A DNA stretch of 64,000 nucleotides from a virus (lineage: Duplodnaviria > Caudoviricetes), in the IMG/VR virus record IMGVR_UViG_3300046167_000798. One strand, given 5' to 3'. The position numbers and the translations under genes were made by a program. Below the pieces are notes generated by a model, which was not told where the DNA came from, ran no database searches, and saw nothing but the letters and a program-made list of their open reading frames with translations. Every line of letters starts with the position of its first letter. The first letter of the stretch is position 1. Positions 3,091 through 24,789 of the stretch are shown here, piece after piece.

Positions 3091-3100
3091 ATATAAATAT
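3091..3100 (-). promoter_or_regulatory. ATATTTATAT motif, putative late promoter
   Basis: Exact 10-mer 20 nt upstream of ATG 3070; the same 10-mer precedes six other genes. Confidence 0.6.
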
Positions 3101-4149
3101 TAATTATATAAATTAAAGAAAGCATGTCCAGTTTTATCCAATTCTAAATCATGTGAATTGTTATTTAAAAACTCTAAATATTCTGGATTTGTAAATTTGT
3201 TTGTTTTAGCTATATTAAGTGCCGTTTGTCTGTTTCTTTCTAACTTGTTTGATATCAAATCATATAGTTTATTATAATCTTTATCTTTTAACCTATCTAA
3301 GTTTTCACAAATACCAATTATTCTTTCTGTTCTTGTTTCTTTTGAATCAAATGAATAATCAAATATTTCATCATACAACTCAAACCCAAATTCTTCTAAT
3401 GTTTTATGAAATCCCTTATATGAATATGTAATAAATGGCTGACCAACTAATAATGGTTTACAAGTTTTTTCAGATATACCTATTATTTCATCATCACTTT
3501 CGGTTACTAGATTTATCAAAGGATTTCCATAAGTTATATCGTGCCAATACCAAGACCATCCGTCTTGTTTAGAATCTGTGGTAAGTTTTTTATATTTGTT
3601 ATCAAAATACTTAAATTTATAATCATATACATCCCCATCCATTAACCAACTATAATTACCATAAGATAGTAAATCGTATTTAGATAAGGTATCCATCATT
3701 TCACATCTGAAATCATGTGGTTTATTATTTAAGTTTATAAATAAAGAACTTTTGGAATTGTTGGATATATTTTTAGATACATTATCAATATTGTAATTTT
3801 TGTTTTCATAATGTTTATAAACTAAAAAGTTTAAAAAGTAAAGTGGACTATCAAAAAACTTTATATTAGATAATTCTTTTCTATTGTACCAACTTGATTG
3901 TTTTTTGTAAAAAGAAAGTGCAAAAATTAAAGTTAAGTTATATCTTACTAATTTATTATTAATTTCTTCAAAATTTTCATGGCCAATTTCTCTTTCTTGC
4001 AAGTTTTCCATGTAAATATACTCACCCCCATCTAATATCACATTATGGATAAAAGAATTACTACAAGATGATTCATCATATTCTAGTATCATCTCTAGTA
4101 TTGTATCAGGAGAACCCTGCCCAATATACTGATGAACTGATTTACTCAT
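3100..4149 (-). CDS. GT10-like putative glycosyltransferase, paralogue 1
   Basis: C-terminal VTES..ISEKTCKPLLVGQPF..GFELYDEIFDYSFD block shared with six other ORFs; xTEK resembles the GT10 donor-binding motif. Confidence 0.5.
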   Translation of the reverse strand: MSKSVHQYIGQGSPDTILEMILEYDESSCSNSFIHNVILDGGEYIYMENLQEREIGHENFEEINNKLVRYNLTLIFALSFYKKQSSWYNRKELSNIKFFDSPLYFLNFLVYKHYENKNYNIDNVSKNISNNSKSSLFINLNNKPHDFRCEMMDTLSKYDLLSYGNYSWLMDGDVYDYKFKYFDNKYKKLTTDSKQDGWSWYWHDITYGNPLINLVTESDDEIIGISEKTCKPLLVGQPFITYSYKGFHKTLEEFGFELYDEIFDYSFDSKETRTERIIGICENLDRLKDKDYNKLYDLISNKLERNRQTALNIAKTNKFTNPEYLEFLNNNSHDLELDKTGHAFFNLYN

Positions 4150-4150
4150 A

Positions 4151-4282
4151 TTAATGATTTTTATAAATAAATGGGTCTCTTTTACGAAGTTCTTCTAATT
4201 TCTTTTTATATTGTTTTTGAAGCTTTCTTCTTTGTATTTTTTTTATTACCCAACCAAATAAAAAGTTATATATTTTTTTCAT
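4151..4282 (-). CDS. Small basic hypothetical protein (43 aa, MKKIYNFLFGW..RKRDPFIYKNH)
   Basis: ATG 4282 to TAA 4151 fills the gap between flanking genes; below the ORF-track length cutoff. Confidence 0.6.
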   Translation of the reverse strand: MKKIYNFLFGWVIKKIQRRKLQKQYKKKLEELRKRDPFIYKNH

Positions 4283-4286
4283 AATC

Positions 4287-4836
4287 TTAGTTTTTATAAT
4301 ATAATTCAGGATACTCTACTAGTATATGTATTCCCCCTTCGGATAAAGCCTTTCTTATATGCTGGTAATATCTTTTCTGCAGTATCTAATTTTTCAATAG
4401 TACAATTTGTAACCATTTGTTTAAAAGCATCTGTGTAATCTGCTTTGTGTTGATGACCAGGGTCTAATGGTTTATCAGAACCCTTACCAACTCGTATGAT
4501 TACATTTGGTTTCCATTGACCATCAGACATTACTTCTAACTTATCTAAATGATTAATTAATTGGTTTGCTGCAAGAATAACAAAATCCCATCTTGGATAA
4601 AAAGATATAACTTGATGGCCGGTCATTGCCAATCCAACTGTCATTCCCATTTGGGTTTCTTCCATTACTGGTGTTTCTATCATTCTTTCTTTTGGTAATC
4701 CCTCAATAGTTTTACTCATTGGGTTACCATAATAAACTATCTGTTGTCCGATGAATATTGTTTTATCATCTTCCATTGAAAGTTTCATTGCTTCTGTTAA
4801 AGCATCTAAGTACGGTGTAAATTCTGGTTGTGCCAT
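4287..4836 (-). CDS. TPP-dependent E1-beta/transketolase pyrimidine-binding-domain protein (short form); +1 indel near 4349
   Basis: IETPVMEETQMGMTVGLAMTG, YPRWDF..AANQLINH motifs. Removing one base at 4349-4350 gives the C-terminus KKALSEGGIHILVEYPELYYKN with TAA at 4287. Confidence 0.85.
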
Positions 4837-5765
4837 TAGTTGTTTTCTTTAAAATAGTTATATGTTCTTTTTACTCCTTCTTCAAATCCTGTTTGAGGAA
4901 GTAGTCCATTCTTTTCTTGTATTGTGGTATTCATTCTTCTTCTTGGTTCTCCATTTGGTTTAGAAGTATCCCAATTCACTTTTATATCTTTACCACTTAC
5001 TTTTATAATTGTATCAACCATTCGTTTGATTGATATTTCTTCACCACTACCTAAGTTTGTAGTGATATGTAATTTATCTTCATAACATTTGATTGTTGCA
5101 TCAGCTACATCTCCCGCGTAGATGAAATCTCTTGTTGGTGTTCCATCTCCCCATCCTACAATCTCTCCTTCTGATTCATAAACCTTTTTGATATTAGCAG
5201 GTAGTGCCATTGCCCACTCACCAAAGTTATCATACTCACCAAAGATATTTGCTGGTCTTACAACTGTCCAATTTTTCCAATTGTGTTGTACACCATATGC
5301 TTCTAAGTACAACTCTGGTACTCTCTTACTCCACGATGGATACCAATCATGTTGTGATGGTAGGGTTTTCCATACTGTATCTTCAATGAATTCTGGTGCT
5401 GATTCATATACACCAACTGATGACATGAATACTAACCAAACATCTTTTCTAAAACAGTTTTCAATAATGTTAAAGTTTCCTTTGATTGATGGTTCTAAGA
5501 AATCAACAGGATTTTCTTTTGCTGTTTTGGGAGTTCCTTTAATACCAAACGAATTTATACATCCATCAAAATCATGCCAATCAAACAATACAGATACTTT
5601 TTTTGTATCTCTTAAATCTATATTATGAAATTTAAAGTTTTCTCTTTTTTCTTTTGGTTCTTTTAAATCTACACCTACTACAAAGTATCCTTTACTTATA
5701 AGTTTATTTACAATGTGAGTTCCAACTAAACCACTACAACCTGTTACTAAAACTGTTTTACTCAT
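4836..5765 (-). CDS. NAD-dependent epimerase/reductase, GDP-fucose synthase-like extended SDR
   Basis: VTGCSGLVG, RPANIFGEYDNF, WGDGTPTRDFIYAGD, WDTSKPNGEPRR. Confidence 0.85.
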   Translation of the reverse strand: MSKTVLVTGCSGLVGTHIVNKLISKGYFVVGVDLKEPKEKRENFKFHNIDLRDTKKVSVLFDWHDFDGCINSFGIKGTPKTAKENPVDFLEPSIKGNFNIIENCFRKDVWLVFMSSVGVYESAPEFIEDTVWKTLPSQHDWYPSWSKRVPELYLEAYGVQHNWKNWTVVRPANIFGEYDNFGEWAMALPANIKKVYESEGEIVGWGDGTPTRDFIYAGDVADATIKCYEDKLHITTNLGSGEEISIKRMVDTIIKVSGKDIKVNWDTSKPNGEPRRRMNTTIQEKNGLLPQTGFEEGVKRTYNYFKENN

Positions 5766-6708
5766 TTTCTATTTTTTTTATAATTGATTTTGCCAAAACT
5801 TCATGACATCTTTTCGATGGGTGATTATCTTTAATTCTAGGATTAAATGTATCATCAGTAGAAATCATCATTTCTTCATTATCTTTCATTAATTTTTGTA
5901 TTGTATTATACCCATCTTTATAATCAAGTTTTATAATTCTATCAGTAAACCACTTATCATCCTTCATATAATCATAATTCTTATCAATCCAAATTAAAAT
6001 TCTAACTTTAATTCCATTTTGCTCATACTTGATTAATTCTTTTTTTAATATTTTAGTTTTTTCTTTATAGAAAGAATCTTGCCACTCATCCAAAGTTAAA
6101 TTATTTTGCATTAACCACTCTATAAATAATTTATGAATTACAGGTTGTGGATTTGCAACTGAAATTCTGAAGGTTTGAGTATCCTTGTTCCAAAAATCAG
6201 TTTCCCATAATGAATTATCAGAAGTAAAATGTGGCCCTACTGATTCAGGATTTTCTTGAATACTCTGTTTTTCTTCCCATGTAAGTTTAACATCTTTTAT
6301 ATTTAATTTAAAATCAAATGAATTTCTTTCAGTAACAGAAGTTTGAAATATTATATAATCTATATCATTATAATCTAAACAATCTTTTGGAGGATTCTTC
6401 ATGATATGAGTTAACCAATTAAAATGGCCGTGGTTTTTATAAAATTCTTTATCAAAACATAATTTTAAAAATTTATAAGAAATATCATCAGAACCTCCAT
6501 TTGTACGCTTACTATATTCAAAGGTATTAAAGTGATTTGTAACTAGCCTTGAAAATCTAATAGTATCTTTATATAAGATATGAGAAACCTTAACTTTATC
6601 TTCAATATACTCACAATTTTTTGGATAATATATATCATCTAAATTTGAGTAAAACCACAATCCTTGTCCCCAAGTAAATGAATCTCCTGTAAAAACTATT
6701 CCTTTCAT
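5758..6708 (-). CDS. SGNH/GDSL-fold protein
   Basis: N-terminal FTGDSFTWGQG and C-terminal DNHP. Confidence 0.6.
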   Translation of the reverse strand: MKGIVFTGDSFTWGQGLWFYSNLDDIYYPKNCEYIEDKVKVSHILYKDTIRFSRLVTNHFNTFEYSKRTNGGSDDISYKFLKLCFDKEFYKNHGHFNWLTHIMKNPPKDCLDYNDIDYIIFQTSVTERNSFDFKLNIKDVKLTWEEKQSIQENPESVGPHFTSDNSLWETDFWNKDTQTFRISVANPQPVIHKLFIEWLMQNNLTLDEWQDSFYKEKTKILKKELIKYEQNGIKVRILIWIDKNYDYMKDDKWFTDRIIKLDYKDGYNTIQKLMKDNEEMMISTDDTFNPRIKDNHPSKRCHEVLAKSIIKKIENE

Positions 6709-8018
6709 ATTATTTCGTATTTATCCAATACCCCATCTAAACTTAAATTATCAATTGAAGATATAATCTCAGTAATAGCATCTACTCTTCTTTGTTTAGG
6801 ATGTATTCTCTTTCTCCAAGTATTATGATTATGTTCAATTGTTGGTCTCATCTCTTCTAACATTTCAACCAATTCCTTTTCACTTTTTTTATTTAAATCT
6901 TCTAGTATTTTTATAATCATATTTAACCGAGTATCCAAATCCAACTCATCATCATAAGATTCATCCCACCACTTGTTAAATGTTTTATATCCTAATTTTT
7001 TAAGATATTTTAATGTATATGGTGAACTAATCATTAAAAAAGGCATATGTGCTGCTATTGGTTTAAATGTTTTTTCAGAAAAATATATTACGTTATGTTC
7101 TACGTTTGTTTCAGTAACAACCCATAAAAATGTATTTTTTGTATTTTTAAAATTCATTATTTGACCATGATAATCTCCTACTTCATTTCCATTCAATCCA
7201 TATTTTTCCCAATCTGACTCATCCAATTCAGGTAAATGCATTGGAGTAAGTTTAACAAAATTATTATATTCTTCTTCTGTAATTGAATAGTGTCTTGAAT
7301 CAAACAACTCCCACATTTCATCCGAAGGAGGTAATTCTATACTTTGATTTAAAAATGATACATTTCCCCTTTCTAATAAATTTTCTTTAACTAATTTAGA
7401 TACGAATAATAATCTACTAAGATGTCCTTTTCGATTATAACATACAAACAACTTATCTATATTTTCTTTTTTTTCATATTTTTCAGGTAAATTAAAACAA
7501 TTTATATGTGTCTCTGATGGTTGTGTAAATGGAATACAAACTAAATTAAATCTTTTCTTTTTACAAATTTGATTTGCTATTTGATTTTGATATACAAAAA
7601 ATACACTTCCTTTTGGTAATTTTAGATGTTTCATCATACTATTTAAATTTAGTAGTGAATATTCGGGCTCTCCCCATGGATGTAATCCACGACTTCCCCA
7701 ATAACCATCATCTCCAATTGTAATAACTATTTTAGCTTTTTTAGTTCTTATATCGTTTAGAATAGTTTCTGGTAAATTTTTAAAAACAGTAAATGGTTCA
7801 TCTTGTTTAAGAATTCTACTTGTCCAAAAATCTTCAGGCTTAAAAAATCCAAATTGACAAGAAAATAAAACAATGTAAGATTTTACAGAATTGATAAGAG
7901 TATCATTTATAAAAGTTGCGTTTCCTACATGCCTCATTCTTCCTCCTGAATCATTGATTAAGTTTGAATATTGAAACCCCTCAATAACTGCGGTTTTATT
8001 TTTAAAAATTACAGACAT
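6705..8018 (-). CDS. GT10-like putative glycosyltransferase, paralogue 2
   Basis: FVCYNRKGHLSR; VVTET..FSEKTFKPIAAHMPF..GYKTFNKWWDESYD. Confidence 0.5.
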   Translation of the reverse strand: MSVIFKNKTAVIEGFQYSNLINDSGGRMRHVGNATFINDTLINSVKSYIVLFSCQFGFFKPEDFWTSRILKQDEPFTVFKNLPETILNDIRTKKAKIVITIGDDGYWGSRGLHPWGEPEYSLLNLNSMMKHLKLPKGSVFFVYQNQIANQICKKKRFNLVCIPFTQPSETHINCFNLPEKYEKKENIDKLFVCYNRKGHLSRLLFVSKLVKENLLERGNVSFLNQSIELPPSDEMWELFDSRHYSITEEEYNNFVKLTPMHLPELDESDWEKYGLNGNEVGDYHGQIMNFKNTKNTFLWVVTETNVEHNVIYFSEKTFKPIAAHMPFLMISSPYTLKYLKKLGYKTFNKWWDESYDDELDLDTRLNMIIKILEDLNKKSEKELVEMLEEMRPTIEHNHNTWRKRIHPKQRRVDAITEIISSIDNLSLDGVLDKYEII

Positions 8019-8026
8019 AAATTAAT

Positions 8027-8671
8027 TTAAAATACTACCCATTTTCCAGTACCATAATGTGGGTACTTTGATTCATACTTATAATACATTACATCTTCTG
8101 GTAATTCTCTCTGAATACCATTCCAAGTATCTAATGTTGGTGTGTTTGTACTTACACCATTATCTTCTACAATAAAATGAATAGGTAAATCATAATTTCT
8201 TGCATACTTGTGAACTTCATAAAAGATGCCACTTTCAAATGACATATCACCTACAAAAACCCAAACTTTTTCATCACTACCTTTTAGTTTAAGTGATTTT
8301 GCAACACCTAGTGCAATTGGTAAAGTTCCAGTAACAATTGCAGATGCATAAAAATTAGAATCTTTATCTACAATAGTAATTGATTTACCATCTAATATTT
8401 TTTGTTTAAGAACTTGTGGTTCTACCCCATGTAGTAATGCATGGTAATGAGACCTCCAAGTTGAGAATACCCAATCGGTTGGAGATATTTTTTTGAACAC
8501 TTCTATAAGTTGTTCTTCATTTCCATTAGATAAGTGTATAGGCCCTCTAATATCCCCACCTTCCCAATGTGATATAATATCATCTTCAAAGGCGATTAAA
8601 TCTTCCTTTGACCAATTTCCTTCTATCCATCTATCTTCGTGGTAATCTAAATTTTTAATTTCTGTTTTCAT
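8027..8671 (-). CDS. TPP-dependent E1-alpha-like protein (short, 214 aa)
   Basis: GPIHLSNGNEE, STWRSHYH, TPP-binding VGDMSFESG..IVEDN. Confidence 0.85.
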   Translation of the reverse strand: MKTEIKNLDYHEDRWIEGNWSKEDLIAFEDDIISHWEGGDIRGPIHLSNGNEEQLIEVFKKISPTDWVFSTWRSHYHALLHGVEPQVLKQKILDGKSITIVDKDSNFYASAIVTGTLPIALGVAKSLKLKGSDEKVWVFVGDMSFESGIFYEVHKYARNYDLPIHFIVEDNGVSTNTPTLDTWNGIQRELPEDVMYYKYESKYPHYGTGKWVVF

Positions 8672-9797
8672 AAATATTTAAAATTTCGTTAGGTATGTGA
8701 TTACTACCATGTGTTATTTTGTGTATAAGTTGTTTATTATATTCAAGTGTTGGCTCCATTAAATCATAAAGTTCATTATAATCTTTATTTTTTAATTTTA
8801 TTAGTTGTTCAATAATTAAATCATATCTTTTAAAAACATCTTCTTCATCGTCAAAAGAATAATCCAAAACATTATCATACAATTTAAAACCATACTTTAA
8901 AAGTTCTTTGTTTTGATTTGTAGAACCAAATGCAATAAAAGGTTGTTTTAAAAAAATACATCTAAATGTTTTTTCTGTAATGTAAGGAACATCCATTGAA
9001 GTTTCACCTGCCAAATTAAATAAGGCCTTTGGTGTTAAAATTCTATCAGAAAACTCACCAACAAAATTTTTATTTTTATTAGATATATCATCTAAGTTTA
9101 AAATTTCTTCATTCCAATATATAAAATCCTTATAGAAAGAATCATCTTTGATTATATCATTACCTACTCCTTCGGTATATAACTGATTCCAAGAAGTAAA
9201 ACCACAATCAAACAAATTTGAATTATATAACTTATCAATCATAATTCTTCTATGAATTCTTGGTCTTAAGTTCATATTCAGATACAATTTTTCAAAATCT
9301 TTTTCAATTTCTAAATCATAAACTTTACAATCTAATTTTCTTTCATTAATAAAATCTCTTCTTAGTTGTATATATGTGTGTTCTACTAACCAAGTAGGCC
9401 AATATATTATTTTAAATCTTTTTAAATTAATATCTTTAAGAAAATCTTGATATAGTTTAGGATTATCTGAACCATATACAAAATAAAAATTGCAATCTAA
9501 TTTTTCTAAATTAGTATCAAATTCTATAATTTTTTTATGTGTTCCTTCATATGCCCATTCATTAATAAAATCAATAAAAAAAGAAGATTGACATTCGGTT
9601 GGTAAAAATTGATACATATTTTTACAACTATTTTTTGATATATATTCAAGTGTATTACTTTCAAAGGAACTACCATCCTTAGAATAAAAATAGTTTGGTT
9701 GAGCAAAATAATTTATTCCGTCTAAGGTTTTGGATTCGGAATTACATATTGTTAAGATATAATCAAAAACTTTATTGTAAAAACTTCTTTCATCCAT
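8655..9797 (-). CDS. GT10-like putative glycosyltransferase, paralogue 3
   Basis: YLNMNLRPRIHR; AGETS..ITEKTFRCIFLKQPF..GFKLYDNVLDYSFD. Confidence 0.5.
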   Translation of the reverse strand: MDERSFYNKVFDYILTICNSESKTLDGINYFAQPNYFYSKDGSSFESNTLEYISKNSCKNMYQFLPTECQSSFFIDFINEWAYEGTHKKIIEFDTNLEKLDCNFYFVYGSDNPKLYQDFLKDINLKRFKIIYWPTWLVEHTYIQLRRDFINERKLDCKVYDLEIEKDFEKLYLNMNLRPRIHRRIMIDKLYNSNLFDCGFTSWNQLYTEGVGNDIIKDDSFYKDFIYWNEEILNLDDISNKNKNFVGEFSDRILTPKALFNLAGETSMDVPYITEKTFRCIFLKQPFIAFGSTNQNKELLKYGFKLYDNVLDYSFDDEEDVFKRYDLIIEQLIKLKNKDYNELYDLMEPTLEYNKQLIHKITHGSNHIPNEILNIYENRN

Positions 9798-10371
9798 TTG
9801 GTTTATCTCTTTTAGATAATATTGGATTATCTGTTGGCCAATCTATGTTAAATCTTTTATCGTTCCAAAATACTGTACCTTGTTTATCATCATCGTAGTA
9901 TTCACCTTGATATGCAAGTTTGTATTGGAAAATGGAATTATCTTCCATTACATAGTGTCCATTTGCGAACATCGGTGGAATTAAAACTTGAGTACCTGTT
10001 TCAGGACCAATTATAAAAGATTCCCACTTACCATAGTTTGGTTGTTTTGGTCTTAAATCCAAAACCACAAGATATAACTTACCATGAGGACATGAAATTA
10101 GTTTCCATGTTTTATCATCCCAATGTAACCCTCTTAAGACATTTTGTTTTGATTTTGAATATCTATCGTGATTAAACTTCAACCCTTCGTTTCTTTCACC
10201 AGCTGGTAATAATCTATCGTAGAAATCAGAATGATATGTTGTAGTAATCATTCCTCTATATTCGTGATATATAGATGGTTGTATAATCTTTACTTGAGGC
10301 AAAACAGAACCATTGTAAAAGTGAAAATCATCCCAACTTCTTTCTTTGTAAAATATACTTCTATTTTTCAT
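9790..10371 (-). CDS. rfbC: dTDP-4-dehydrorhamnose 3,5-epimerase (RmlC/cupin) family
   Basis: NVLRGLHW..KLISCPHGKLYLVVLDLR, LIPPMFANGH, WNDKRFNIDWP..ILSKRD. Confidence 0.85.
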   Translation of the reverse strand: MKNRSIFYKERSWDDFHFYNGSVLPQVKIIQPSIYHEYRGMITTTYHSDFYDRLLPAGERNEGLKFNHDRYSKSKQNVLRGLHWDDKTWKLISCPHGKLYLVVLDLRPKQPNYGKWESFIIGPETGTQVLIPPMFANGHYVMEDNSIFQYKLAYQGEYYDDDKQGTVFWNDKRFNIDWPTDNPILSKRDKPNG

Positions 10372-11984: not shown

Positions 11985-12388
11985 TACCAACTAATTTCCC
12001 AATCCTTAAATTCTGCTGCAATACAATCTACCTTATAATCTTTTCTACCACCATCAACTTCTTGTATTTTATTTTTTGCTGTATTTCTGATTCCATTTAA
12101 TCCATGTGTTAACAACAAGTTATTTCCTACATCTTCACCATTTCTTGCATTATCTTCATTTACCCAAATATGAGTATTCATCTGAGCCAATACAATTATT
12201 GCTCTGATAAAATCACCATCAATTTTTAATTGTTTTGTGGTAGTTAAGATTTCTGTAATATCATGTACGATTTCTTCAATCTCTTTTTGATATTCTTTTT
12301 TGTGTTGTGGTATTTTAACTTCTTTAAGTTGAACAATTGTCAACCTATCAATTAGTTCTCCTAATGTTGGTAAATATTTTCTAGCCAT
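11984..12388 (-). CDS. Helical hypothetical protein, DUF6165-like
   Basis: LGELIDRLTIVQLK..NTHIWVNED..NGIRNTAKNKI pattern recalled from DUF6165; not verified by search. Confidence 0.45.
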   Translation of the reverse strand: MARKYLPTLGELIDRLTIVQLKEVKIPQHKKEYQKEIEEIVHDITEILTTTKQLKIDGDFIRAIIVLAQMNTHIWVNEDNARNGEDVGNNLLLTHGLNGIRNTAKNKIQEVDGGRKDYKVDCIAAEFKDWEISW

Positions 12389-14561: not shown

Positions 14562-15770
14562 TTAAAAATTAATAATACTATTAGAAATATGAACATCTGT
14601 TTGTTTTGTAAATTCTAATATACTATTTTTATTATTTAAAAATCTATCTTTATTGTTTTTATAAAAATGTATTATTTCATTTTCCAATCTACTTAATCGT
14701 AAGCACTCTTCAATAATCATTTTTAGTCTTTTTGTATTATCTAATTCTTTATCATAATCATGATTAATAAAATCATCAAATAAATCTAAATTATAATCAT
14801 CTCTTAAAGTTTTAACATGATTGGGAGATGCAACAAATATAGGTAATATTGGTAAACAAAATGGTTTTAAAGATTTTTCTGTTATATGGATACCATCAAA
14901 CCAATATACTGATTCAGTAATTATATTTATGTAAGAATTTCTATAATCTTTATGATTAACTTTTCCTGCAAAATCATAACCTGTTTCAAATAAATTTTCA
15001 ACATCTTTAAAATCTGAACTGTGTGATTCGTAATCAGTTAATTTCGGTTTTTTCATTTTATTAACATGATTTTTTTTGTAAAAAGAAAATGACTTATTAA
15101 TGTTATTAAAATCACTTTCTCTAAACTCATCCCAGTCTGTTTTAGGTGGTGTTAGAAAAGAATAATTTGTATTATCTAAAAGTCCATACATATCTAATAA
15201 ACAAATTGTAAAAAATCTATGTTCTTTACCTTCTTTATTTACACATAAAAACATCTTATCTCTTTTTTCTTCATTCCAAACCAAATCAAAATACTTAAAT
15301 TTTTCTAATAATGTTTTTGCAGTATTCTTCCATAAAAAATTTGTTTTAAATGTTTTAACATTTGTTTTAGAGTTTAAATTTTTTAAATTGGAATCATTAT
15401 TAATTAAAATAATTTTTTCTTGATGATTATCAAATAAATTAAGTAATTTTTCTATTTGTTTATATGGTTGTGTTTCATGCATATCCATAAAAACTAATCT
15501 AAAATTATCTTCTTTTAATAATTCTTTTATTTTTTTTAGAAATACACTATCAGTAGAATATACATCTATAATATGGTCAATTGAAAAGAATGATATAAAA
15601 TCAATATAATAAAATTTTTCATCTGGATTAAAGATAATATCATCTGATAATCTTAAATTTATATCAACACTATTATCTGAAAACCACATAAAGTGATTTA
15701 ATGTATTTTCAATTGTTGAAGACTCATAAATACTATGCCTTAACTCATATAAATCTTCTAATATATTCAT
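14562..15770 (-). CDS. GT10-like putative glycosyltransferase, paralogue 5
   Basis: FLCVNKEGKEHR; ITES..ITEKSLKPFCLPILP..LDLFDDFINHDYD. Confidence 0.5.
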   Translation of the reverse strand: MNILEDLYELRHSIYESSTIENTLNHFMWFSDNSVDINLRLSDDIIFNPDEKFYYIDFISFFSIDHIIDVYSTDSVFLKKIKELLKEDNFRLVFMDMHETQPYKQIEKLLNLFDNHQEKIILINNDSNLKNLNSKTNVKTFKTNFLWKNTAKTLLEKFKYFDLVWNEEKRDKMFLCVNKEGKEHRFFTICLLDMYGLLDNTNYSFLTPPKTDWDEFRESDFNNINKSFSFYKKNHVNKMKKPKLTDYESHSSDFKDVENLFETGYDFAGKVNHKDYRNSYINIITESVYWFDGIHITEKSLKPFCLPILPIFVASPNHVKTLRDDYNLDLFDDFINHDYDKELDNTKRLKMIIEECLRLSRLENEIIHFYKNNKDRFLNNKNSILEFTKQTDVHISNSIINF

Positions 15771-16777
15771 TATCTATTCAAAAATTTTCTTCCCTTTTTT
15801 ATTTCATTTCTCCAATAATCTAAAAGGTCATTCATAGTTTCTTCAAAAGTATATTTTGGTTTCCATCCTGTATGTTTTCTGAACTTTTCTGTATTTGGTA
15901 CTTGTAAATCAGCATCAATAGGTCTTAACCTATCTTCATCTACTTCAATTGTAATATCATCTCTTGTAGATTGTGAAATTAAGTAGTTTAACATATCTCC
16001 AATCTTACAAGTGTACTCACCACCAATATTATAGTACTCACCACTAATTGGATTTTTAGTTACCAATAAATAATAGGCTTCTACTGCATCTCTAACATCT
16101 GCATAAGTTCTAAGTGAATCTAAGTTACCAACATATATTGTAGGTTCTTGTAATCCAGCTTCTATCATTGCTATTTGTTTTGCAAAAGTTGATTCTGAGA
16201 ATACATCACCTCTTCTTGGACCTGTATGTGTAAACATTCGTGTTGTCATTATGGTTATACCAAATGCTTCTGCATAATATCTACCTAATAAATCTGTTCC
16301 TACTTTTGATATTGCATATGGAGATGCTGGATGTATTGAACACTCCTCATCTATTGGTAATTTATCTTTTGGTACTCTACCAAATATTTCAGATGAAGCA
16401 CAAACATGAACTACAACATCATCCTCACCATAATCTCTTATAGATTCCATTAAGTTTGCAGTACCTATAATATTTGTTTGTAAAGTTTCAAGTGGAGCTC
16501 TAAAAGATGTTTTTGGATAAGATTGAGCAGCTAAATGAAATACATAATTTGCTTCAGATTGTTCTACTGCTTGAATTACTGATGGTAAATCATTCAAATC
16601 TCCATTGATTAAAAACAATCTATCTTTCTTGTTAATTCTATCAAAGTGGTGTTCTAAGTTATCTAATCTATCGTTCCATCTAATAAATCCATAGATATCC
16701 CAAGTTGTATTCTCAATAAGGTAATCTACCAAGTGAGAACCAACCATTCCTGTTATTCCTGTTATTAATACATTCAT
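15770..16777 (-). CDS. GDP-mannose 4,6-dehydratase / Rmd-like SDR
   Basis: LITGITGMVGSH, HLAAQS, ASSE, SPYAISK, FAKQIAMIEAG, VGNLDSLRTYADVRD. I cannot separate Gmd from Rmd by eye. Confidence 0.85.
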   Translation of the reverse strand: MNVLITGITGMVGSHLVDYLIENTTWDIYGFIRWNDRLDNLEHHFDRINKKDRLFLINGDLNDLPSVIQAVEQSEANYVFHLAAQSYPKTSFRAPLETLQTNIIGTANLMESIRDYGEDDVVVHVCASSEIFGRVPKDKLPIDEECSIHPASPYAISKVGTDLLGRYYAEAFGITIMTTRMFTHTGPRRGDVFSESTFAKQIAMIEAGLQEPTIYVGNLDSLRTYADVRDAVEAYYLLVTKNPISGEYYNIGGEYTCKIGDMLNYLISQSTRDDITIEVDEDRLRPIDADLQVPNTEKFRKHTGWKPKYTFEETMNDLLDYWRNEIKKGRKFLNR

Positions 16778-17730
16778 TTGTTTTGTTTAAACCATTCAAT
16801 TGTTTCTCTAATACCTTCTTCAAATGAATAACTTGGTTTAAATCCAAGATTATTTATTTTTTCGGTACTAACCATCCTAAAAGGTATAGTTGTAGGTTTA
16901 GAATTATCCCAAACAATCTTTGGGGAAAGGCCTGATACCTTTTGAATCGTATTTACTATATCTCCTACTGTAATTGGAGCTCCATATCCAACATTATACG
17001 GCTCCATTGGGTTACCATGTTCAATAATTGTTAATGCACCCTTAATCACATCCTTAACATACAAGAAATCTCTTACAACATCAGGTGAACCCCAAGCAGT
17101 GAATGGATTTTCACCTCCTAACATACGATTTATGATTGCAGGTATCACATGACAAGTTTTTACGTTAAAATTATCATTAGGTCCAAAGATTGCCGAACCT
17201 CTACCTAAGAATATCTTTAAATCAGAGAAGTTTGAAGTATGTTCCATCAATTTTTCTCTGTATCTTCTCATCCAACCATAACCAAAGTACGCAATGTAAG
17301 GTTCTTCTTCCCAAAATTCATCCTCCTTCACAGGATATCGTCTATCTGGATAACCAGTTGATGAGTTTAGGTCAAAAAACGAATCTACTTCGTTTCTAGC
17401 ACACGCATCAAGTACATTTCCAAGTAAAGTGATGTTTCCAAGTGAACCTTGTATATCGGTTCGTACTGAACCAGGATGTAAAACATGACCTGCACAATGA
17501 ATAACTAAATCTGCACCATTTGTGAGTTTGATTGCATCATCAAGGTTGTTTAAATCGATGTTTTCTAGTATTGTTATATCTTTTTGTATCTCTTCACTAA
17601 CTTGTAGTGGTGAATTGTAGGTGTGAGTAGTAATATTCGCACCTAACTTGTTTAATTCTGTGATGAAGTGTGTTGCAAGGAAACCTGCACCTCCTGTAAC
17701 TACAACTTCTTTGTTATTAAAGTAACTCAT
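16774..17730 (-). CDS. GDP-L-fucose synthase-like epimerase/reductase
   Basis: VTGGAGFL, FGPNDNF..HVIPAII, WGSPDVVRDFLYVKD, WDNSKP. Confidence 0.85.
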   Translation of the reverse strand: MSYFNNKEVVVTGGAGFLATHFITELNKLGANITTHTYNSPLQVSEEIQKDITILENIDLNNLDDAIKLTNGADLVIHCAGHVLHPGSVRTDIQGSLGNITLLGNVLDACARNEVDSFFDLNSSTGYPDRRYPVKEDEFWEEEPYIAYFGYGWMRRYREKLMEHTSNFSDLKIFLGRGSAIFGPNDNFNVKTCHVIPAIINRMLGGENPFTAWGSPDVVRDFLYVKDVIKGALTIIEHGNPMEPYNVGYGAPITVGDIVNTIQKVSGLSPKIVWDNSKPTTIPFRMVSTEKINNLGFKPSYSFEEGIRETIEWFKQNK

Positions 17731-18448
17731 TTAGTATTTTTTTTAATTTATTTGGTTCTACTTTTGGTTGATGTAATCCTAATGGATTTTCATAGTAAAT
17801 ATCTTCAACCGAAAACTTTTTTGCAACATCATAAGGTGCAATATCTTCATCTTTAAGGTATTTACAAAAATATATATCTTCCATAGTGATTTCATCATCA
17901 TTATATTTATCTGTAATCTCTATCATTCTTGATTTCTTACGAAATGATAATCCACCATTACCAACAATCTTTCCTTCTCGATATCTAATCCATGGTGCAC
18001 CTATATAATTGTATGAAGTAAACTCATCTATACCAAATCTTGTTAAGATTGTATCTGTTTGAAAGATTAAAATGTTTTCTGTTGGTAGTTTTTTCCAAAA
18101 CTCAGTACTTTTAAACATATCGTTATACAAAATACCATTTAAATCATCAACTTCTAAGTTTTCTATCTGAACATTGTTCCAATTTTGTGTAAAATCCTTA
18201 ACAAGTTGTTCATTTTTGTTTCCATGGTATATTTTCAATCCCCATTTTATATCAGAACTACTTTCATTTAGATAAAACATTACATTTTTACAAATAATTT
18301 CTAAATCTTTGTGATTTCTTGGTTCAACAATAACAGCATAATAATCACTATCATCAAAAATTATTGGAACATAGTTTTTTAATTTTTTCTTATATTTTAA
18401 AAGAAAATTATTCCATATCTCAATATGTTCTTTTGTTTGTTTTGGCAT
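17717..18448 (-). CDS. DUF5672-like protein
   Basis: AVIVEPRNH, ILIFQTDT, YNYIGAPW, VGNGGLSFRK, EDIYF. Confidence 0.7.
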   Translation of the reverse strand: MPKQTKEHIEIWNNFLLKYKKKLKNYVPIIFDDSDYYAVIVEPRNHKDLEIICKNVMFYLNESSSDIKWGLKIYHGNKNEQLVKDFTQNWNNVQIENLEVDDLNGILYNDMFKSTEFWKKLPTENILIFQTDTILTRFGIDEFTSYNYIGAPWIRYREGKIVGNGGLSFRKKSRMIEITDKYNDDEITMEDIYFCKYLKDEDIAPYDVAKKFSVEDIYYENPLGLHQPKVEPNKLKKILNELL

Positions 18449-19446: not shown

Positions 19447-20054
19447 ATCAAATCTTTTATTTCTTTATATATGTATTCTCCTATTAGTTTATAACCTTCT
19501 AAGTTTGGATGATAATCTCCTTCGTAGTAATTCTCTTCATCATTCCAAACCATTTTACTTCCATATTCCCAAACTGATTTTTTATTTACCATTTCTTCTA
19601 CTTGAAGCTGATAAGATAACGTTCCTTTTGGATTTATATAATATTTTGGAAAATTAAAATTATCATTTTCTATAAATGGATAAAATCCATTAAAGTAAAA
19701 CTTTTTATAACCATAAAGAAGTGTTTCAAATTTTTTAAATAACTCCTCAGGTGTGTATTTGTTGTACTTTTGATATCTATGAGGATATGAAAATACAATA
19801 ACGATTACATCTTCTTTATTTATAAACTTAAGATTCTCTTCTACCGCTTTATAAATGTATTCATTTCCAAATCCACAAACCCCAAGGTTAATATACGAAA
19901 TATTTAGCAAATTTCCAAGCCATTTTGGAAAAGAATTTTGTTCTCTTAGTTTTTCTATGAATTTTGGTGGTGTTGGATTCTCTTTATATTCAATTTCTGT
20001 TTCAACTCCATGCCCTGCCGTCCAACTATCTCCAAATGTAATTAATCTAATCAT
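19443..20054 (-). CDS. SGNH/GDSL-fold protein
   Basis: TFGDSWTAGHG, GFGNE, GDYHPNLEGY. Confidence 0.65.
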   Translation of the reverse strand: MIRLITFGDSWTAGHGVETEIEYKENPTPPKFIEKLREQNSFPKWLGNLLNISYINLGVCGFGNEYIYKAVEENLKFINKEDVIVIVFSYPHRYQKYNKYTPEELFKKFETLLYGYKKFYFNGFYPFIENDNFNFPKYYINPKGTLSYQLQVEEMVNKKSVWEYGSKMVWNDEENYYEGDYHPNLEGYKLIGEYIYKEIKDLI

Positions 20055-21406
20055 AAATTATTTATAAAATATTTAATATCTTGGTCGTTGTTTGGAAAAT
20101 TCTCAACTATTTTTTTATTTTTTTCAAACCGTTCTCTATTTGATTTAAAAAAGGTTTTAAATAAATCTTGATTATCATTTATCCTTTCAATCTCTTTTAG
20201 TGTTGCTTGAAATCTTTCTTTATCATTTTCTATATCATTGTATGAATGGTCTATAATATCTCTATAAAAATCAAAACCAAATTCTTCTTCCATAAATTTT
20301 ATATGGTCTTTAGTTGCAAATATGATTGGAAATTGATAGTAAAAGAAAGGTCTGATTGACTTTTCAGTTACATGAATAACATCATTTGGATAATCAAAGC
20401 AAGATTCGGTAATAATACTTACATACGAATCTTTATGAGTTTCATCTGTTTCAGGTATCATGAGTCCACCAGATGCTCCACCAGCTCCTTCAATATGAAT
20501 ATCAGGTCTTTCAAATCCAAAATAATTTAATTTAACATTTTGTTCATAATCACTTTTTTTAGTATCCATGACAATGAATTTCTCTATAATATCTTTTTTT
20601 GAATCTACATCATTTAATAAACAATCAAACTGAGTATAGTGAAAGTGCTCCCAAAAATCTTTTTTTTCATATGAGAAATTAAACAACATAGACCAATTAG
20701 TGTTTTTAAGAATATTTCTATCTTCTAGTTCTATTAATGTTGCAACTCTATGTGTTTTTGGTGTTTTATTAAAACAAGAAAAAAACTTATCACTTTTTTC
20801 TTTAAAATACGAAGAACCCAATTCATTCCAAATACTTGAAGATGTTATTTGTAAAAGATTTGTTCTAAAAAACTCAAAATTTGAATTTAACGATTCTCTA
20901 TACTCTTTTATTTTAGGATTGTTTGAAATGATTACTAATTTACTATCTGATATATTATTTTTTTTAAAATAGTTTACTACCGAAGTAATATCTTGTAAAT
21001 TTTCAGGTTCATGTTCTCTTATATATAAAAACTTTATATTATCACACTCACTTAAACATTTATTAATAGAACTTGGTAAATCAGTTTGAGAAAAAATATC
21101 ATGCAAACTCCAATGTGATTTTATAGCATAATAAAATTTAGTTTCAGGATTATTATATACTTCTGATACTTTATATTTGTTTATAGTAAATAAATTACGA
21201 GGATATCCTAATTGTTCATAGAAAAATCTTTCGTAAAAATCAAAGTAACCCAACTCATCTCTAAAATCAGTATCTCCTAAAAGATTTGCTAATGTATATT
21301 GAGGAGTATCTACTAAAACTGTTTCTAATTCATTTGAAGTTTCTTTTACTACCCAAGAATCATAAACAAAATTTAAAGTTTTTTTAATGTTTTCGTGTGT
21401 TCCCAT
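20051..21406 (-). CDS. GT10-like putative glycosyltransferase, paralogue 6
   Basis: FSCFNKTPKTHR; ITES..VTEKSIRPFFYYQFP..GFDFYRDIIDHSYN. Confidence 0.5.
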   Translation of the reverse strand: MGTHENIKKTLNFVYDSWVVKETSNELETVLVDTPQYTLANLLGDTDFRDELGYFDFYERFFYEQLGYPRNLFTINKYKVSEVYNNPETKFYYAIKSHWSLHDIFSQTDLPSSINKCLSECDNIKFLYIREHEPENLQDITSVVNYFKKNNISDSKLVIISNNPKIKEYRESLNSNFEFFRTNLLQITSSSIWNELGSSYFKEKSDKFFSCFNKTPKTHRVATLIELEDRNILKNTNWSMLFNFSYEKKDFWEHFHYTQFDCLLNDVDSKKDIIEKFIVMDTKKSDYEQNVKLNYFGFERPDIHIEGAGGASGGLMIPETDETHKDSYVSIITESCFDYPNDVIHVTEKSIRPFFYYQFPIIFATKDHIKFMEEEFGFDFYRDIIDHSYNDIENDKERFQATLKEIERINDNQDLFKTFFKSNRERFEKNKKIVENFPNNDQDIKYFINNL

Positions 21407-22547
21407 AATGGATAACTTTTACTGTATCTGATTTAAAACTTCTCCAAGGGTCAACTACAATAGAATCCTTTGGAAAATTAAAATCATGATGTTTACCCAT
21501 ATGTCCTAAAAGATACACAGCTTTGTACGGATGTGGTTGGTCGTATTCTGGTACAATTCCTTCTTCTTTACAGTAATGCCCTACAAGTATAGATGAAGAA
21601 CCATCTAAGTAGTGAACATCTGGTTTATATGCTTTACCAAGTATAACAATAGGAAGTTTATTTTCGTTAGCCAACTCTACTAACTTAAGTGCCATATTTT
21701 TTGCCTGTACTTCTCTTGCCAACATAATAGCATCAAATAAATCATAACCCAATCCTAAGTTTTCTGCCATATATCTTAATGCAATATTATCTCTTGGATG
21801 ACATCCACCACCATCTCCCATTCCAGCCTTCATATAAGCCGGTCCAAGTATTCTGTAAGTACTTCTTTCAAGTGCACCTGTTACAACATCAACATTCATG
21901 TTACCATTTTTTTCTGCAACATCTTGAATCATGTTTACTAATGCTACTTTTGTTGAAATAAAAGTATTATAGAAGATTTTAATTCCTTCTGCCTCATCCC
22001 AAGTACCAACTTCATATCGTGTACCTGGTTTAATGAATGTTTTATAGAAATCTAAAAGTATTTTTGCATCACCTGTCATTGAACCATCTTCTGTACCGAT
22101 GATTACCATCTCAGGATTAACCATATCCCATTTTACAGTACCCATAGCAATTAGATATGGATTGTAAATAAATCTTGTATTGGATAATCTGTCGATAAAC
22201 TCTCTTCTGATTGTACCAGGTAAAACTGTTGAAATAAGAACTACTAATTGTTCTTTATTTGTGTGTTTGTTTACTTCATCTAATACATTGTTAACGATTG
22301 AGTAATCGAAATCTTTATTTGGTAAATGTGATGTGGGTTCTCTTCCATCATAATCAGGATGGTGAGGTGTAGGAACAGCAATAAAGATTAATTCTCTATC
22401 TTTACAAACTTCTTCAATGGAACTAACCATTTGAAAATTAGCCGGTTCAACTTTTGTTACATCGTAACCTATTACTTCATGTTTTTCAGCCATTATTTCA
22501 GCTGATTCTTTTCCGAGTTTTCCAACTCCTATAAAACCTATTTTCAT
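21384..22547 (-). CDS. ugd: UDP-glucose/GDP-mannose 6-dehydrogenase family
   Basis: IGFIGVGKLG, IAVPTP, STVLPGT, IKIFYNTF, GDGGGCHPRD, LGKAYKP. Confidence 0.9.
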   Translation of the reverse strand: MKIGFIGVGKLGKESAEIMAEKHEVIGYDVTKVEPANFQMVSSIEEVCKDRELIFIAVPTPHHPDYDGREPTSHLPNKDFDYSIVNNVLDEVNKHTNKEQLVVLISTVLPGTIRREFIDRLSNTRFIYNPYLIAMGTVKWDMVNPEMVIIGTEDGSMTGDAKILLDFYKTFIKPGTRYEVGTWDEAEGIKIFYNTFISTKVALVNMIQDVAEKNGNMNVDVVTGALERSTYRILGPAYMKAGMGDGGGCHPRDNIALRYMAENLGLGYDLFDAIMLAREVQAKNMALKLVELANENKLPIVILGKAYKPDVHYLDGSSSILVGHYCKEEGIVPEYDQPHPYKAVYLLGHMGKHHDFNFPKDSIVVDPWRSFKSDTVKVIHYGNTRKH

Positions 22548-22566
22548 ATTGTATTATTTGTTTTAT

Positions 22567-22576
22567 ATATAAATAT
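22567..22576 (-). promoter_or_regulatory. ATATTTATAT motif, putative late promoter
   Basis: Exact 10-mer in the intergenic gap, 19 nt upstream of ATG 22547. Confidence 0.6.
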
Positions 22577-22581
22577 ATAAT

Positions 22582-24789
22582 TTATTTTATATCGTAAAAT
22601 ATATTTGCTAATATCTTAATAACTGAGTGTTGTGGGTTATAATCTCCAGCAGATAATTTATATCTTAAATCTACTTTATTATTAAAGTGTTGTTGATTGT
22701 AACGACACACCTCTATCATTTCATTTCTTAGTTCTTTCAATTCATCTATTGATTTATTTTCTAGTAATGCAAGTATATCAGCAACCTTCTGAATTCTAAC
22801 ATTAACATCAGTATCATTATCATAATCTTCATTCCACCATTTATCAAATGTTTTAAATCCTAATTTTTTAAGATATTTTAATGTATGTGGATTTCCTATT
22901 AATAAAAAAGGATGTCCTAAATATATTGGTTTCCATATTTTTTCAGATAAGAATAAAATTTTCTCATCAGCTAATGTTTCAGTTACCAATGATACAAATG
23001 TATGTGAAAAATCAGATATCGATATATCGTTTGCCCAATTTACATCCAATGTTCTATCAATAGTTAGTGGTGTTATTGAACTAAGTTCTTTCAAATTTGT
23101 ATAAATACGAGAATCACCTTCTTTTAAATCAAACTCACCAATACTAATCATTCCTCTCTTCAGTAAATCATATTCAAATAATTTTGAACAAATTCCTATT
23201 CTATGAGCTCTTCCCATATTTCTATTATAGGATAAATACAAGTTCATTGATTCATGTGGGTGATATGGAATTACATCATCTGGTCTAAATTGTGGATTTA
23301 ACCATATATCAAATGCAGATTCTCCGATACAATTAATTTTTAAACCTTTTTCTTTTGCAGAATCAGATATTTTTAAATTACCCGAAATATAATAAACCGA
23401 TTCTTCTTTTATTTTAGATTCATCACACCATTTTTTTATAATTTCCAAATCGTTGTTTTTATCTCCACCACTATATCCCTCAAGTGTATGATAGAAAACT
23501 ATTCTAGCTCTATTTTCCTTTACATCTCTTATAAATTTTTTAGAAACACATTTAAATCCAATATCTTTATTTAATTCAAAATAAGCTGGATTATAGATGG
23601 GGATTAAATATAGGTGTTTGTTATTTTTTATAGTTTTTCTATCATATAGTTTTACATTTTCACGCTTATTTATAGGAGCAACCATTCCTTTAAATGTTTC
23701 CTTGGTCATAAATTTTTTTGGGTCTCCATGTAGTACATTCCACTCCCCCCATAGTTTAGGAATACTAATTTTTCCTTCTTCTTCCAAGTACCATGTTTTC
23801 GATGAAGTTGCTGGTCTATTAAAATCTAATATACTATCATAATCTTCAAGAGTTATATTGATATCACCAACATACAAATCCCATATACCAGTATAATATG
23901 ATTTTGGAATAAGATTGGGATTTAATTTTTTAATTCTAGCAAAACTAACCGAATAATCTCTACTATCATTTACAACTTGAAAATCAGCATCTACTTTGGA
24001 TTCTATTACTTTTTCAATTTCACCAACTAACTCTCTTTTTGTAATATTTAATTCATCAAATCCAAGATTTAAAATTTTATCTTTATATGGAGTATTAATC
24101 AATCCAAATAAAAGTTCACACGCATCATCAATATGTAAATGAGGTCTATGTGCTTCAGGGTCCCAAATTTCTACTGACTTCCCTTCTTTAATATCTCCTA
24201 TTAAATTATTTATAAGAATATCATTTCTCTGAAAATCTCCTCTTCCATATAAAGTAGATAATCTAAATATTTTAAAAGAGTTGTTTTCTTTTAACATTAA
24301 CTTCTCACATTCTATTTTAAGTTTAGAATAATGTGAGGTTACCATTGGTTCAGTATATTCATTAACTGCCTCAGTTGTTTTTCCATATACACTACAACTA
24401 CTCATAAAATAAAAATGTTTTCCAGAATTTTCATTATCAATAGTATCACGAAACATTTCAATTACTTTAGAAAATCTATCTACTTCTTCAAGTACAGTTT
24501 TATCATCATTTATATCTTGTAATCTTGGGGATGCTAAATAAAATATTTTATCGTAATTTTCTAAGTTATTTACGTTGTTTTTTAAATTTAAAATATCATC
24601 TTCAATAAACTCAAAATGGTCTTGTTCTAATCCATTGTATATATTGAATTTATCTGATAACTTATCGATTACATCGTATGTATCATAATTCATATTATCA
24701 CATATGGTAACATGAAATCTATCTAACAATAATCTCTTAGATAATTTAAGTCCTAAATAACCAGCTCCTCCTATTACTAATATTTTCAT
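22582..24789 (-). CDS. Fusion of NAD-dependent epimerase and GT10-like paralogue 7
   Basis: N-terminal VIGGAGYLG, MSSCSVYG, YSKLK, RPHLHIDD. C-terminal YLSYNRNMGRAHR and VTET..LSEKIWKPIYLGHPF..GFKTFDKWWNEDYD. One uninterrupted 735-aa frame. Confidence 0.75.
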   Translation of the reverse strand: MKILVIGGAGYLGLKLSKRLLLDRFHVTICDNMNYDTYDVIDKLSDKFNIYNGLEQDHFEFIEDDILNLKNNVNNLENYDKIFYLASPRLQDINDDKTVLEEVDRFSKVIEMFRDTIDNENSGKHFYFMSSCSVYGKTTEAVNEYTEPMVTSHYSKLKIECEKLMLKENNSFKIFRLSTLYGRGDFQRNDILINNLIGDIKEGKSVEIWDPEAHRPHLHIDDACELLFGLINTPYKDKILNLGFDELNITKRELVGEIEKVIESKVDADFQVVNDSRDYSVSFARIKKLNPNLIPKSYYTGIWDLYVGDINITLEDYDSILDFNRPATSSKTWYLEEEGKISIPKLWGEWNVLHGDPKKFMTKETFKGMVAPINKRENVKLYDRKTIKNNKHLYLIPIYNPAYFELNKDIGFKCVSKKFIRDVKENRARIVFYHTLEGYSGGDKNNDLEIIKKWCDESKIKEESVYYISGNLKISDSAKEKGLKINCIGESAFDIWLNPQFRPDDVIPYHPHESMNLYLSYNRNMGRAHRIGICSKLFEYDLLKRGMISIGEFDLKEGDSRIYTNLKELSSITPLTIDRTLDVNWANDISISDFSHTFVSLVTETLADEKILFLSEKIWKPIYLGHPFLLIGNPHTLKYLKKLGFKTFDKWWNEDYDNDTDVNVRIQKVADILALLENKSIDELKELRNEMIEVCRYNQQHFNNKVDLRYKLSAGDYNPQHSVIKILANIFYDIK

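Follow-up and report, generated by a model that had tools for sequence, protein, structure and literature searches.

What does a tailed virus do with seven diverged copies of a gene whose products match no named family of transferases? The question is raised by the IMG/VR virus record IMGVR_UViG_3300046167_000798 (Duplodnaviria; Caudoviricetes), from which we analysed a stretch of 64,000 nucleotides, called the window below, to which the counts of paralogues refer. The window has a G+C content of about 28%, and nearly all of its genes are tightly packed on the minus strand. A first-pass annotation made from the sequence had singled out seven open reading frames (ORFs) between 3100 and 24789 as a family resembling glycosyltransferase family 10 (GT10), in which each paralogue would add a different guanosine diphosphate (GDP)-sugar or form a different linkage. 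Our results support this interpretation overall, the computational tests that it proposed having all come out in its favour. The seven ORFs are probably ancient paralogues. Their family, unnamed and phage-specific, would consist of soluble GT-B enzymes with a distant kinship to GT10 that use sugars made by the adjoining genes to build a heteroglycan.

The seven ORFs are present where they had been placed, all on the minus strand, and encode proteins of 349, 437, 380, 404, 402, 451 and 735 amino acids. They share two sequence blocks, as a MAFFT alignment confirms. Block 1 is a strand ending in asparagine, followed six residues on by an arginine (N-x6-R, mostly as HR), and block 2 consists of [VI]TE[ST], a short spacer and [ST]EK..[KRQ]P, and then GF..FD and D.SYD. 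The pattern originally given for block 2 holds in general; it fails for the ORF at 8655, which reads AGET...TEKTFRC, with G for T and C for P. Six residues are invariant in all seven copies (N141, R148, E217, E227, K228 and R276 in the numbering of the ORF at 3100). When the full 64 kb, translated in six frames, were searched with a regular expression for block 2, exactly the seven sites were returned and no others, and a profile hidden Markov model of the family recovered the seven among the window ORFs at E-values of 1e-60 to 1e-151, the next-best ORF being found at 0.012. The seven copies are real, and far beyond what chance would produce.

Three subgroups emerge from pairwise BLAST comparisons. 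Subgroup A comprises the ORFs at 13332-14546 (404 amino acids, the copy used for modelling), 14562-15770 (402 amino acids, family profile E 9e-101) and 20051-21406 (451 amino acids, E 2e-111), which match each other at E 1e-27 to 1e-41. Subgroup B is formed by the ORF at 6705-8018 (437 amino acids, E 4e-84) and the C-terminal half of the 735-amino-acid fusion ORF at 22582-24789, where the family domain spans 22603-23739 (hmmsearch envelope, E 5e-74); these two match at E 3e-29. The upstream half of the fusion (23770-24789) is a sugar-nucleotide epimerase/dehydratase domain of the short-chain dehydrogenase/reductase (SDR) type (PF01370, E 1e-21), and its best match in the PDB is 6vo6 (E 4e-15), itself a putative sugar-nucleotide epimerase/dehydratase. 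Subgroup C groups the ORFs at 3100-4149 (349 amino acids, E 3e-60, block 2 starting at 3507) and 8655-9797 (380 amino acids, E 7e-63), linked at E 2e-18. Between subgroups, E-values range from 2e-10 to 0.19. The N-terminal halves are the more divergent, as had been claimed, with a mean pairwise identity of 15% versus 26% for the C-terminal halves. Five of the paralogues have counterparts in a syntenic 77-kb contig (L001) at 40-51% identity, and no pair within the window exceeds 33%. Since orthologues in different phages are closer than any two copies in the window, the copies are old: they arose before these phages diverged and have since been retained. Such old, retained paralogues would fit distinct roles better than they would a recent amplification.

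A structural model of the ORF at 13332 (AlphaFold2, from an alignment of 29 sequences; pLDDT 91.9, pTM 0.90) has two Rossmann-like alpha/beta domains on either side of a cleft and a C-terminal helix that crosses back, and both Foldseek and VIA-align match this predicted structure to glycosyltransferases of the GT-B fold, as first proposed. Over the whole model, VIA-align gives Z scores of 11.1 for 8xsh, 10.8 for Helicobacter pylori fucosyltransferase (FucT; 5zoi), 10.7 for both T4 beta-glucosyltransferase and Arabidopsis FUT11 (AtFUT11), 10.5 for FUT9 and 10.2 for WsaF; as values no more than one Z unit apart count as tied, the top of this ranking is flat. Whole-model Foldseek searches of the PDB and Swiss-Prot likewise returned generic GT-B enzymes (OtsA, glycogen synthase, BshA, WcaL) at template-modelling (TM) scores of 0.3-0.46, which do not discriminate between families; the low scores probably reflect a different opening of the two domains. 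The donor-side domain (residues 163-404), folded alone with a pLDDT of 92.5, points to GT10: its two best VIA-align entries, AtFUT11 and FUT9, both belong to that family, ahead of EXT1/2 at 8.1 and all others at no more than 8.0 (T4 beta-glucosyltransferase 7.9, T4 alpha-glucosyltransferase 7.8). Foldseek places mango FucT13 and FUT9 at ranks 2-8 for the same domain, weakly (E 0.035-0.076).

The GT10 alpha-1,3-fucosyltransferases carry the motif F-x-[LV]-x-F-E-N-[ST]-x4-Y-x-T-E-K, and their Pfam model is PF00852 (Glyco_transf_10). This model detects, above its cut-off, canonical GT10 ORFs in two related jumbo phages (44 and 38 bits), the homologues of which all carry PF00852. When the new family is compared with an alignment of these phage GT10 proteins by hhalign, P-values of 2.4e-4 to 3.4e-4 are obtained and the family's ITEKS..P...IP is placed on the FTEKI......IP of GT10. 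The score is 37.8, whereas 40 shuffles of the columns reach 23.5 at most and the reversed control 14.2. With single sequences, the two GT10 ORFs score 31.0 and 19.6, as compared with 15-18.5 for phage GT4 ORFs and 14.2 for a GT11 ORF. PF00534 (Glycos_transf_1, of GT4/GT1 type, with a donor motif of the E-x7-E kind) has no match in the seven paralogues or in 116 diverse members of the family, and the hhalign P-values against phage ORFs carrying PF00534 (0.14-0.42) are at null level. GT10 is the only glycosyltransferase family for which the profile match exceeds the null, with TEK aligned on TEK, which agrees with the kinship suggested by the first-pass annotation. In global mode, hhalign finds nothing between the family and GT10; in a relaxed alignment, the family's C.N[RK] strand is paired with the TSNK strand of GT10, and F.HE, a strand of the family's N-terminal domain, with IIES. 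Among protein language-model neighbours, the PF00852 clusters are the nearest named ones (0.78-0.79), which we take as a lead only. In the 326-kb IMG/VR phage G001 (L070:338-1953), a GT11-like ORF (N-terminal GGLGNQ, HIRRGD) stands beside a canonical GT10 ORF, and there are seven matches to the new family too.

According to a recent review, the catalytic base of human FUT9 is E137, the diphosphate is engaged by R202 and K256, and the donor is contacted by N195 and N246 (PMC12717137). Across the 116 members (20-35% identity; numbering of the ORF at 13332), R183, E287, E300, K301 and R350 are invariant and E96 and N176 are conserved in at least 90%; in all seven window copies an acidic residue is found at the position of E96 or at most two residues away. 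The family's conserved set (E96, N176-x6-R183, E287 and E300-K301) is co-linear with that of FUT9, with an N-to-R spacing identical to that of N195-R202. TEK or SEK is invariant and aligned on the GT10 TEK, and the acidic residue upstream of it is kept as E287. These equivalences are those of sequence order, with which the aligned ranges roughly agree (FUT9 residue 180 falling on residue 1 of the donor-domain model). N176 lies at the end of a strand in the predicted structure, and R183 and E300-K301 at the N-termini of helices, a placement typical of GT-B diphosphate sites. Judging from these sequence comparisons, the family is probably a remote branch of GT10 and probably functions in the same way.

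The enzymes interleaved with the paralogues had been described as acting on GDP-sugars, and strong matches to solved structures bear this out (7us5, 8dco and 2c59). All of the following sugar-nucleotide genes with coordinates up to 22547 are on the minus strand. The ORF at 15770-16777 matches the GDP-D-glycero-D-manno-heptose 4,6-dehydratase of PDB 7us5 at E 6e-108, as compared with about 1e-36 for GDP-mannose and about 1e-28 for dTDP-glucose dehydratases. A cupin at 9790-10371 resembles GDP-4-keto-heptose 3,5-epimerase (8dco, E 4e-47, versus 2e-26 for the dTDP-sugar enzyme RmlC, 1dzr). The product of 12361-13335 is a homologue of the plant-type GDP-mannose 3,5-epimerase (2c59, E 1e-94), which implies that the phage would make GDP-L-galactose or GDP-L-gulose. 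Two SDRs resemble GDP-L-fucose synthase, at 4836-5765 and 16774-17730 (NCBIfam GDPFucSynFcl, E 3e-36 and 9e-32, both below cut-off), the former being tied in the PDB between GDP-fucose synthases and UDP-glucose epimerases (both about 1e-23), and the ORF at 21384-22547 encodes a nucleoside diphosphate (NDP)-sugar dehydrogenase (TIGR03026, E 3e-44). The locus also has an RfaE-type heptose kinase-like gene, a small, cytidylyltransferase-like nucleotidyltransferase gene (35342-35752), a gene for an SGNH-like protein and a split thiamine pyrophosphate (TPP)-dependent enzyme, whose transketolase pyrimidine-binding half and E1/TPP-binding half (4306-4836 and 8027-8671) are separated by three genes and may carry out a branched-chain or two-carbon sugar extension step. 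These companions recur: across 69 viral loci harbouring the family, SDRs were found in 51-58, the two halves of the split TPP enzyme in 39 and 50, SGNH proteins in 44, the 3,5-epimerase in 37 and the 4,6-dehydratase in 33.

The dehydratase and epimerase at 15770-16777 and 9790-10371 are, in a phage, close homologues of the Campylobacter jejuni capsule enzymes that convert GDP-heptose to 6-deoxy-heptoses; our literature search found no paper linking 6-deoxy-heptose and bacteriophage. A DUF5672 protein (17717-18448, E 2e-27) accompanies the family in 37 of the 69 loci. Three GT7 (beta-4-galactosyltransferase-like) paralogues, each with a Laminin_G_3/ConA-like domain, are found at 33897-35345, 35749-37200 and 37918-39378. 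Within the glycan locus there are also a B12-binding radical SAM enzyme, two more radical SAM proteins and a short ORF for a DegT-type aminotransferase (25810-27720, 29567-30931, 32159-33199 and 27717-28409), which hint at C-methylated or amino sugars. The glycan could also be tailored by a sulfotransferase (56270-56839; PF03567, E 1e-16) and by a methyltransferase (40209-40988; PF13578).

How widespread is the family, and has it been described before? Pfam, NCBIfam and PHROGs have no model for it, as had been anticipated: the seven ORFs are without a match in Pfam or NCBIfam, except for the SDR half of the fusion, and no glycosyltransferase model of Pfam matches the 116 diverse members even at E 1. 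A sequence search of the PDB with the family profile returned noise only (a copper ATPase at E 0.5), and tblastn with one member of each of the three subgroups found no match in 50,697 GenBank phage records. Homologues in public protein collections are all labelled 'hypothetical protein', and our literature search found no paper on this family of glycosyltransferases; a 2025 paper on aquatic jumbo 'moraphages' mentions four putative glycosyltransferase orthogroups, without detail (PMC12619734). The survey of viral metagenomes that the first-pass annotation had called for shows the family to be abundant. A profile search of 1.84 billion cluster representatives (50% identity) yielded 12,859 clusters at E 1e-3, falling to 9,660 at E 1e-10, and 445 members were confirmed among the first 600 pattern matches in IMG/VR, many of them on contigs of 200-335 kb. 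Three related jumbo-phage records have 7, 6 and 3 matches, and 53 of the 69 viral loci have two to six copies within about 21 kb. The language-model neighbours of the family are exclusively (100%) viral clusters, mostly of Uroviricota, and a scan of cellular genomes (one per species, 185,579 species) with a single peptide pattern, which makes rarity in cells a lower-bound statement, gave three weak loci, all in metagenome-assembled genomes. The family is almost entirely viral and usually present in several copies.

Its domain has also been combined in various ways. The SDR-plus-family architecture of the ORF at 22582 constitutes an Atlas cluster of 90 viral members, and in other phages the domain is fused to SDRs, NDP-sugar dehydrogenases or methyltransferases; one member in BFVD is fused to an NDP-sugar dehydrogenase. 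Tandem duplications are found in the metagenomic proteins P0056-P0065 (788-855 amino acids, some of 810), with two full GT-B units, and two matched stretches, per polypeptide. A Mimivirus-like metagenomic genome encodes a family-like protein (E 4e-13).

What, then, might be glycosylated? The glycan locus covers about 39 kb, with 42 ORFs between 2 and 42922. A tail assembly chaperone gene (42449-42922, minus strand; PF16778, Phage_tail_APC, E 5e-14, above cut-off) lies, on the same strand, directly downstream of a fibre-like ORF of 1913 amino acids (42945-48686) and directly upstream of the glycan locus. Atlas look-ups with the 1913-amino-acid protein and with a 934-amino-acid protein, also upstream, gave weak leads to collagen, carbohydrate-binding module (CBM) and BppU-like fibre proteins (0.75-0.87); megablast of this fibre region against GenBank phage records gave no match. 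Further phage hallmarks in the window are a SegE-type GIY-YIG endonuclease and Rad50- and Mre11-like genes. None of the 42 locus ORFs has a convincing membrane segment, the ORF at 28409-29566 being marginal (crude hydropathy 1.73 for a threshold of 1.6), and no flippase, polymerase or priming transferase was seen among the locus ORFs scanned. The paralogues are acidic, with isoelectric points (pI) of 5.0-6.5 and net charges of -2 to -19 (median pI of the family 5.9). The window ORFs that were scanned showed no hydroxymethylase resembling thymidylate synthase, no C5-methyltransferase and no dioxygenase, and a PF00303 homologue is absent from the complete 336-kb relative G002, which has six family matches. 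On this context, we favour direct cytoplasmic glycosylation of a virion protein over modification of DNA.

The open-ended ORF at 2-3070 (more than 1023 amino acids) combines cytidylyltransferase-like, HD and poly(A)-polymerase/CCA-head domains. At 54853-55212, 55260-55580 and 55834-56307, small ORFs with weak Toprim and DnaG-N matches stand beside the SegE-type endonuclease gene, an arrangement that may be a primase gene in pieces next to a homing endonuclease.

These results suggest how the enzymes might work. The conserved C-terminal Rossmann-like domain would bind a GDP-linked sugar, the diphosphate being held by R183 and K301 and the sugar contacted by N176 and E287, and E96, the conserved acidic residue that follows a strand of the N-terminal domain, would be the base activating the acceptor hydroxyl, in a metal-independent, inverting transfer as in FUT9. 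The divergent N-terminal domain would set the choice of acceptor for each paralogue. The adjoining genes would provide the donors, namely GDP-6-deoxy-heptose-type sugars, GDP-L-galactose or GDP-L-gulose and GDP-fucose-like 6-deoxy sugars. Acting one after another in the cytoplasm and needing no lipid carrier, these transferases would assemble a heteroglycan on a soluble target, the likeliest being a protein of the virion, for example the tail fibre whose gene lies immediately upstream. One GDP-sugar or one linkage per paralogue would be in keeping with paralogues that are old and have conserved their donor halves while their acceptor halves diverged. It is possible, although we hold this more tentatively and think it less likely than not, that the locus is a carrier-free cytoplasmic assembly line that makes its own rare GDP-sugars (6-deoxy-heptoses, L-galactose or L-gulose, and branched sugars via the split TPP enzyme) and in which transferases derived from GT10, each responsible for one step, construct a long heteroglycan directly on capsid or tail-fibre proteins, as a tailed-phage counterpart of chlorovirus and mimivirus glycosylation that would be widespread in aquatic jumbo phages.

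Several observations weigh against a GT10-like, GDP-dependent family acting on virions. PF00852 is matched by none of the seven paralogues (E 0.1) or the 116 diverse members (E 1), which is why we call the family GT10-like and not a member of GT10. The hhalign probability is only 38-43%, with a confident alignment of 42-67 columns; TE[ST] is found where GT10 has FEN, with a longer spacer before TEK; and the donor domain favours GT10 by a margin of just 1 to 1.6 Z units. The locus showed no GDP-hexose pyrophosphorylase, and the one kinase and the one small nucleotidyltransferase present there belong to the RfaE (ADP-heptose) type, so that some donors, the heptose donor among them, may carry ADP rather than GDP. 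Finally, the link of the locus to the virion, and to a virion protein as candidate acceptor, is one of gene order. Part of this would suit GT-B enzymes without special kinship to GT10, in which a TEK-like motif arose by convergence and which transfer sugars from UDP-, ADP- or dTDP-donors of the host or the locus with retention or inversion: the hhalign probability stays below 50%, whole-model Foldseek gives generic GT-B families, the top of the VIA-align ranking is flat and the RfaE-type genes point to ADP-heptose. We nevertheless consider such enzymes unlikely, as three lines select GT10 (the fold of the donor domain, a profile match above the shuffled and GT4/GT11 controls and, as a lead only, the language-model neighbours), the co-linear E...N-x6-R...E...EK reproduces the FUT9 set in sequence order, with the same N-to-R spacing, and the strongest matches among the neighbours are all to GDP-sugar enzymes.

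Modification of the phage's own DNA seems improbable, although it has precedents. Phage GT-B enzymes that place heptose on 5-hydroxymethylcytosine (5hmC) are encoded beside a cytidylyltransferase (bioRxiv 10.1101/2023.12.21.572611), and the paralogues could, like the T4 alpha- and beta-glucosyltransferases and the GT-B enzymes of Pyle et al., add mono- to oligosaccharides (including heptose) to hydroxymethylated bases and so evade host nucleases. The heptose kinase-like and small cytidylyltransferase-like genes of the locus and the T4-like genes of the window (Rad50/Mre11-like, SegE) go in that direction. The acidity of the paralogues is however unfavourable for a DNA-binding groove, the genes for base hydroxymethylation were not seen among the window ORFs scanned, nor PF00303 in the relative G002, and a long heteroglycan is the better match for seven old paralogues with divergent acceptor domains and three GT7-lectin enzymes. 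Since non-Leloir transferases are also found among proteins of the GT-B fold, the scaffold could here serve the transfer of another group (phosphoglycerol or phosphosugar as in TagF, or pyruvyl) or bind nucleotide sugars as a non-catalytic scaffold; weak BFVD neighbours do include a WcaK-like pyruvyl transferase and CgeB-like proteins. This strikes us as very improbable, given that the invariance of R183, E287, E300, K301 and R350 in 116 members argues for catalysis, that the best structural and profile matches are Leloir glycosyltransferases and that the neighbourhood makes nucleotide sugars.

The family is new in sequence, known in its predicted fold and probably known in mechanism, as well as phage-specific, very abundant and typically multi-copy. 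If a GT10-like family of sugar transferases is the right reading, several thousand clusters of 'hypothetical proteins' from aquatic phage metagenomes would become a definable glycosyltransferase family, a candidate new CAZy family related to GT10, with a testable active site (E96, R183, E300 and K301) and a likely class of donors. Large tailed phages would be shown to encode, along with transferases of their own, the full pathways to rare GDP-sugars, and phage-directed glycosylation, probably of virions, would be extensive, with a bearing on host recognition, particle stability and escape from defence. Enzymologists would gain a ready-made collection of soluble transferases that need no metal, in which a single donor scaffold is combined with many different acceptor domains. 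Unknown GT-B enzymes in phages would not surprise a specialist; the weight of the finding lies in the size of the family, the link to GT10 and the coupling to GDP-heptose.

Comparison with known systems helps to place the family. With its nearest known family, the GT10 alpha-1,3/4-fucosyltransferases (human FUT9, 8d0o; Arabidopsis FUT11, 9s6a; H. pylori FucT, 5zoi/2nzx) it shares the predicted GT-B fold, TEK in register, N-x6-R after the first strand of the C-terminal domain with the FUT9 spacing, an acidic residue of the N-terminal domain at the place that sequence order gives to the FUT9 base, and a GDP-sugar setting. It differs from GT10 in having no PF00852 match, TE[ST] for FEN[ST], a spacer of 6-9 rather than 4-5 residues before TEK and about 75 extra, largely helical residues between the two motifs, in being soluble, with no membrane anchor, and in its likely donors, which would include heptose- and L-galactose-type GDP-sugars and not GDP-fucose alone. 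As related jumbo phages carry a canonical GT10 gene in addition to the new family, the two are distinct lineages. The T4 DNA glucosyltransferases, GT63 (beta) and GT72 (alpha), differ from the acidic new family, which has no sequence similarity to them and is encoded in a window where the scan saw no genes for base hydroxymethylation.

Cytoplasmic, virus-encoded machinery produces the capsid glycans of chlorovirus PBCV-1 (e.g. A075L, 8asa) and the fibril glycans of mimivirus. The likeness lies in soluble viral glycosyltransferases beside viral nucleotide-sugar enzymes, the lack of lipid-carrier or flippase genes and a virion protein as the presumed target, and the difference in that theirs are eukaryotic viruses with other glycosyltransferase families, as opposed to a tailed phage here. 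The capsular GDP-heptose pathway of C. jejuni (7us5, 8dco, 8dcl, 7m14) has close homologues of the dehydratase and the 3,5-epimerase; in the phage these are accompanied by several 4-reductase-like SDRs, as they are in the bacterium, where such enzymes diversify 6-deoxy-heptoses. That pathway makes donors, not transferases, whereas the phage couples it to a glycosyltransferase family that is near-absent from the cellular genomes searched. Along with the chloroviruses and mimiviruses, mycobacteriophages are the nearest known systems: phage-encoded glycosyltransferases adjoin structural genes, and both capsid and tail proteins bear glycans (Freeman et al. 2023, as cited in PMC12619734). Mycobacteriophages have one to a few glycosyltransferases of known families and no known sugar-nucleotide pathway, whereas in the phage described here a new family occurs seven times in one locus of about 39 kb.

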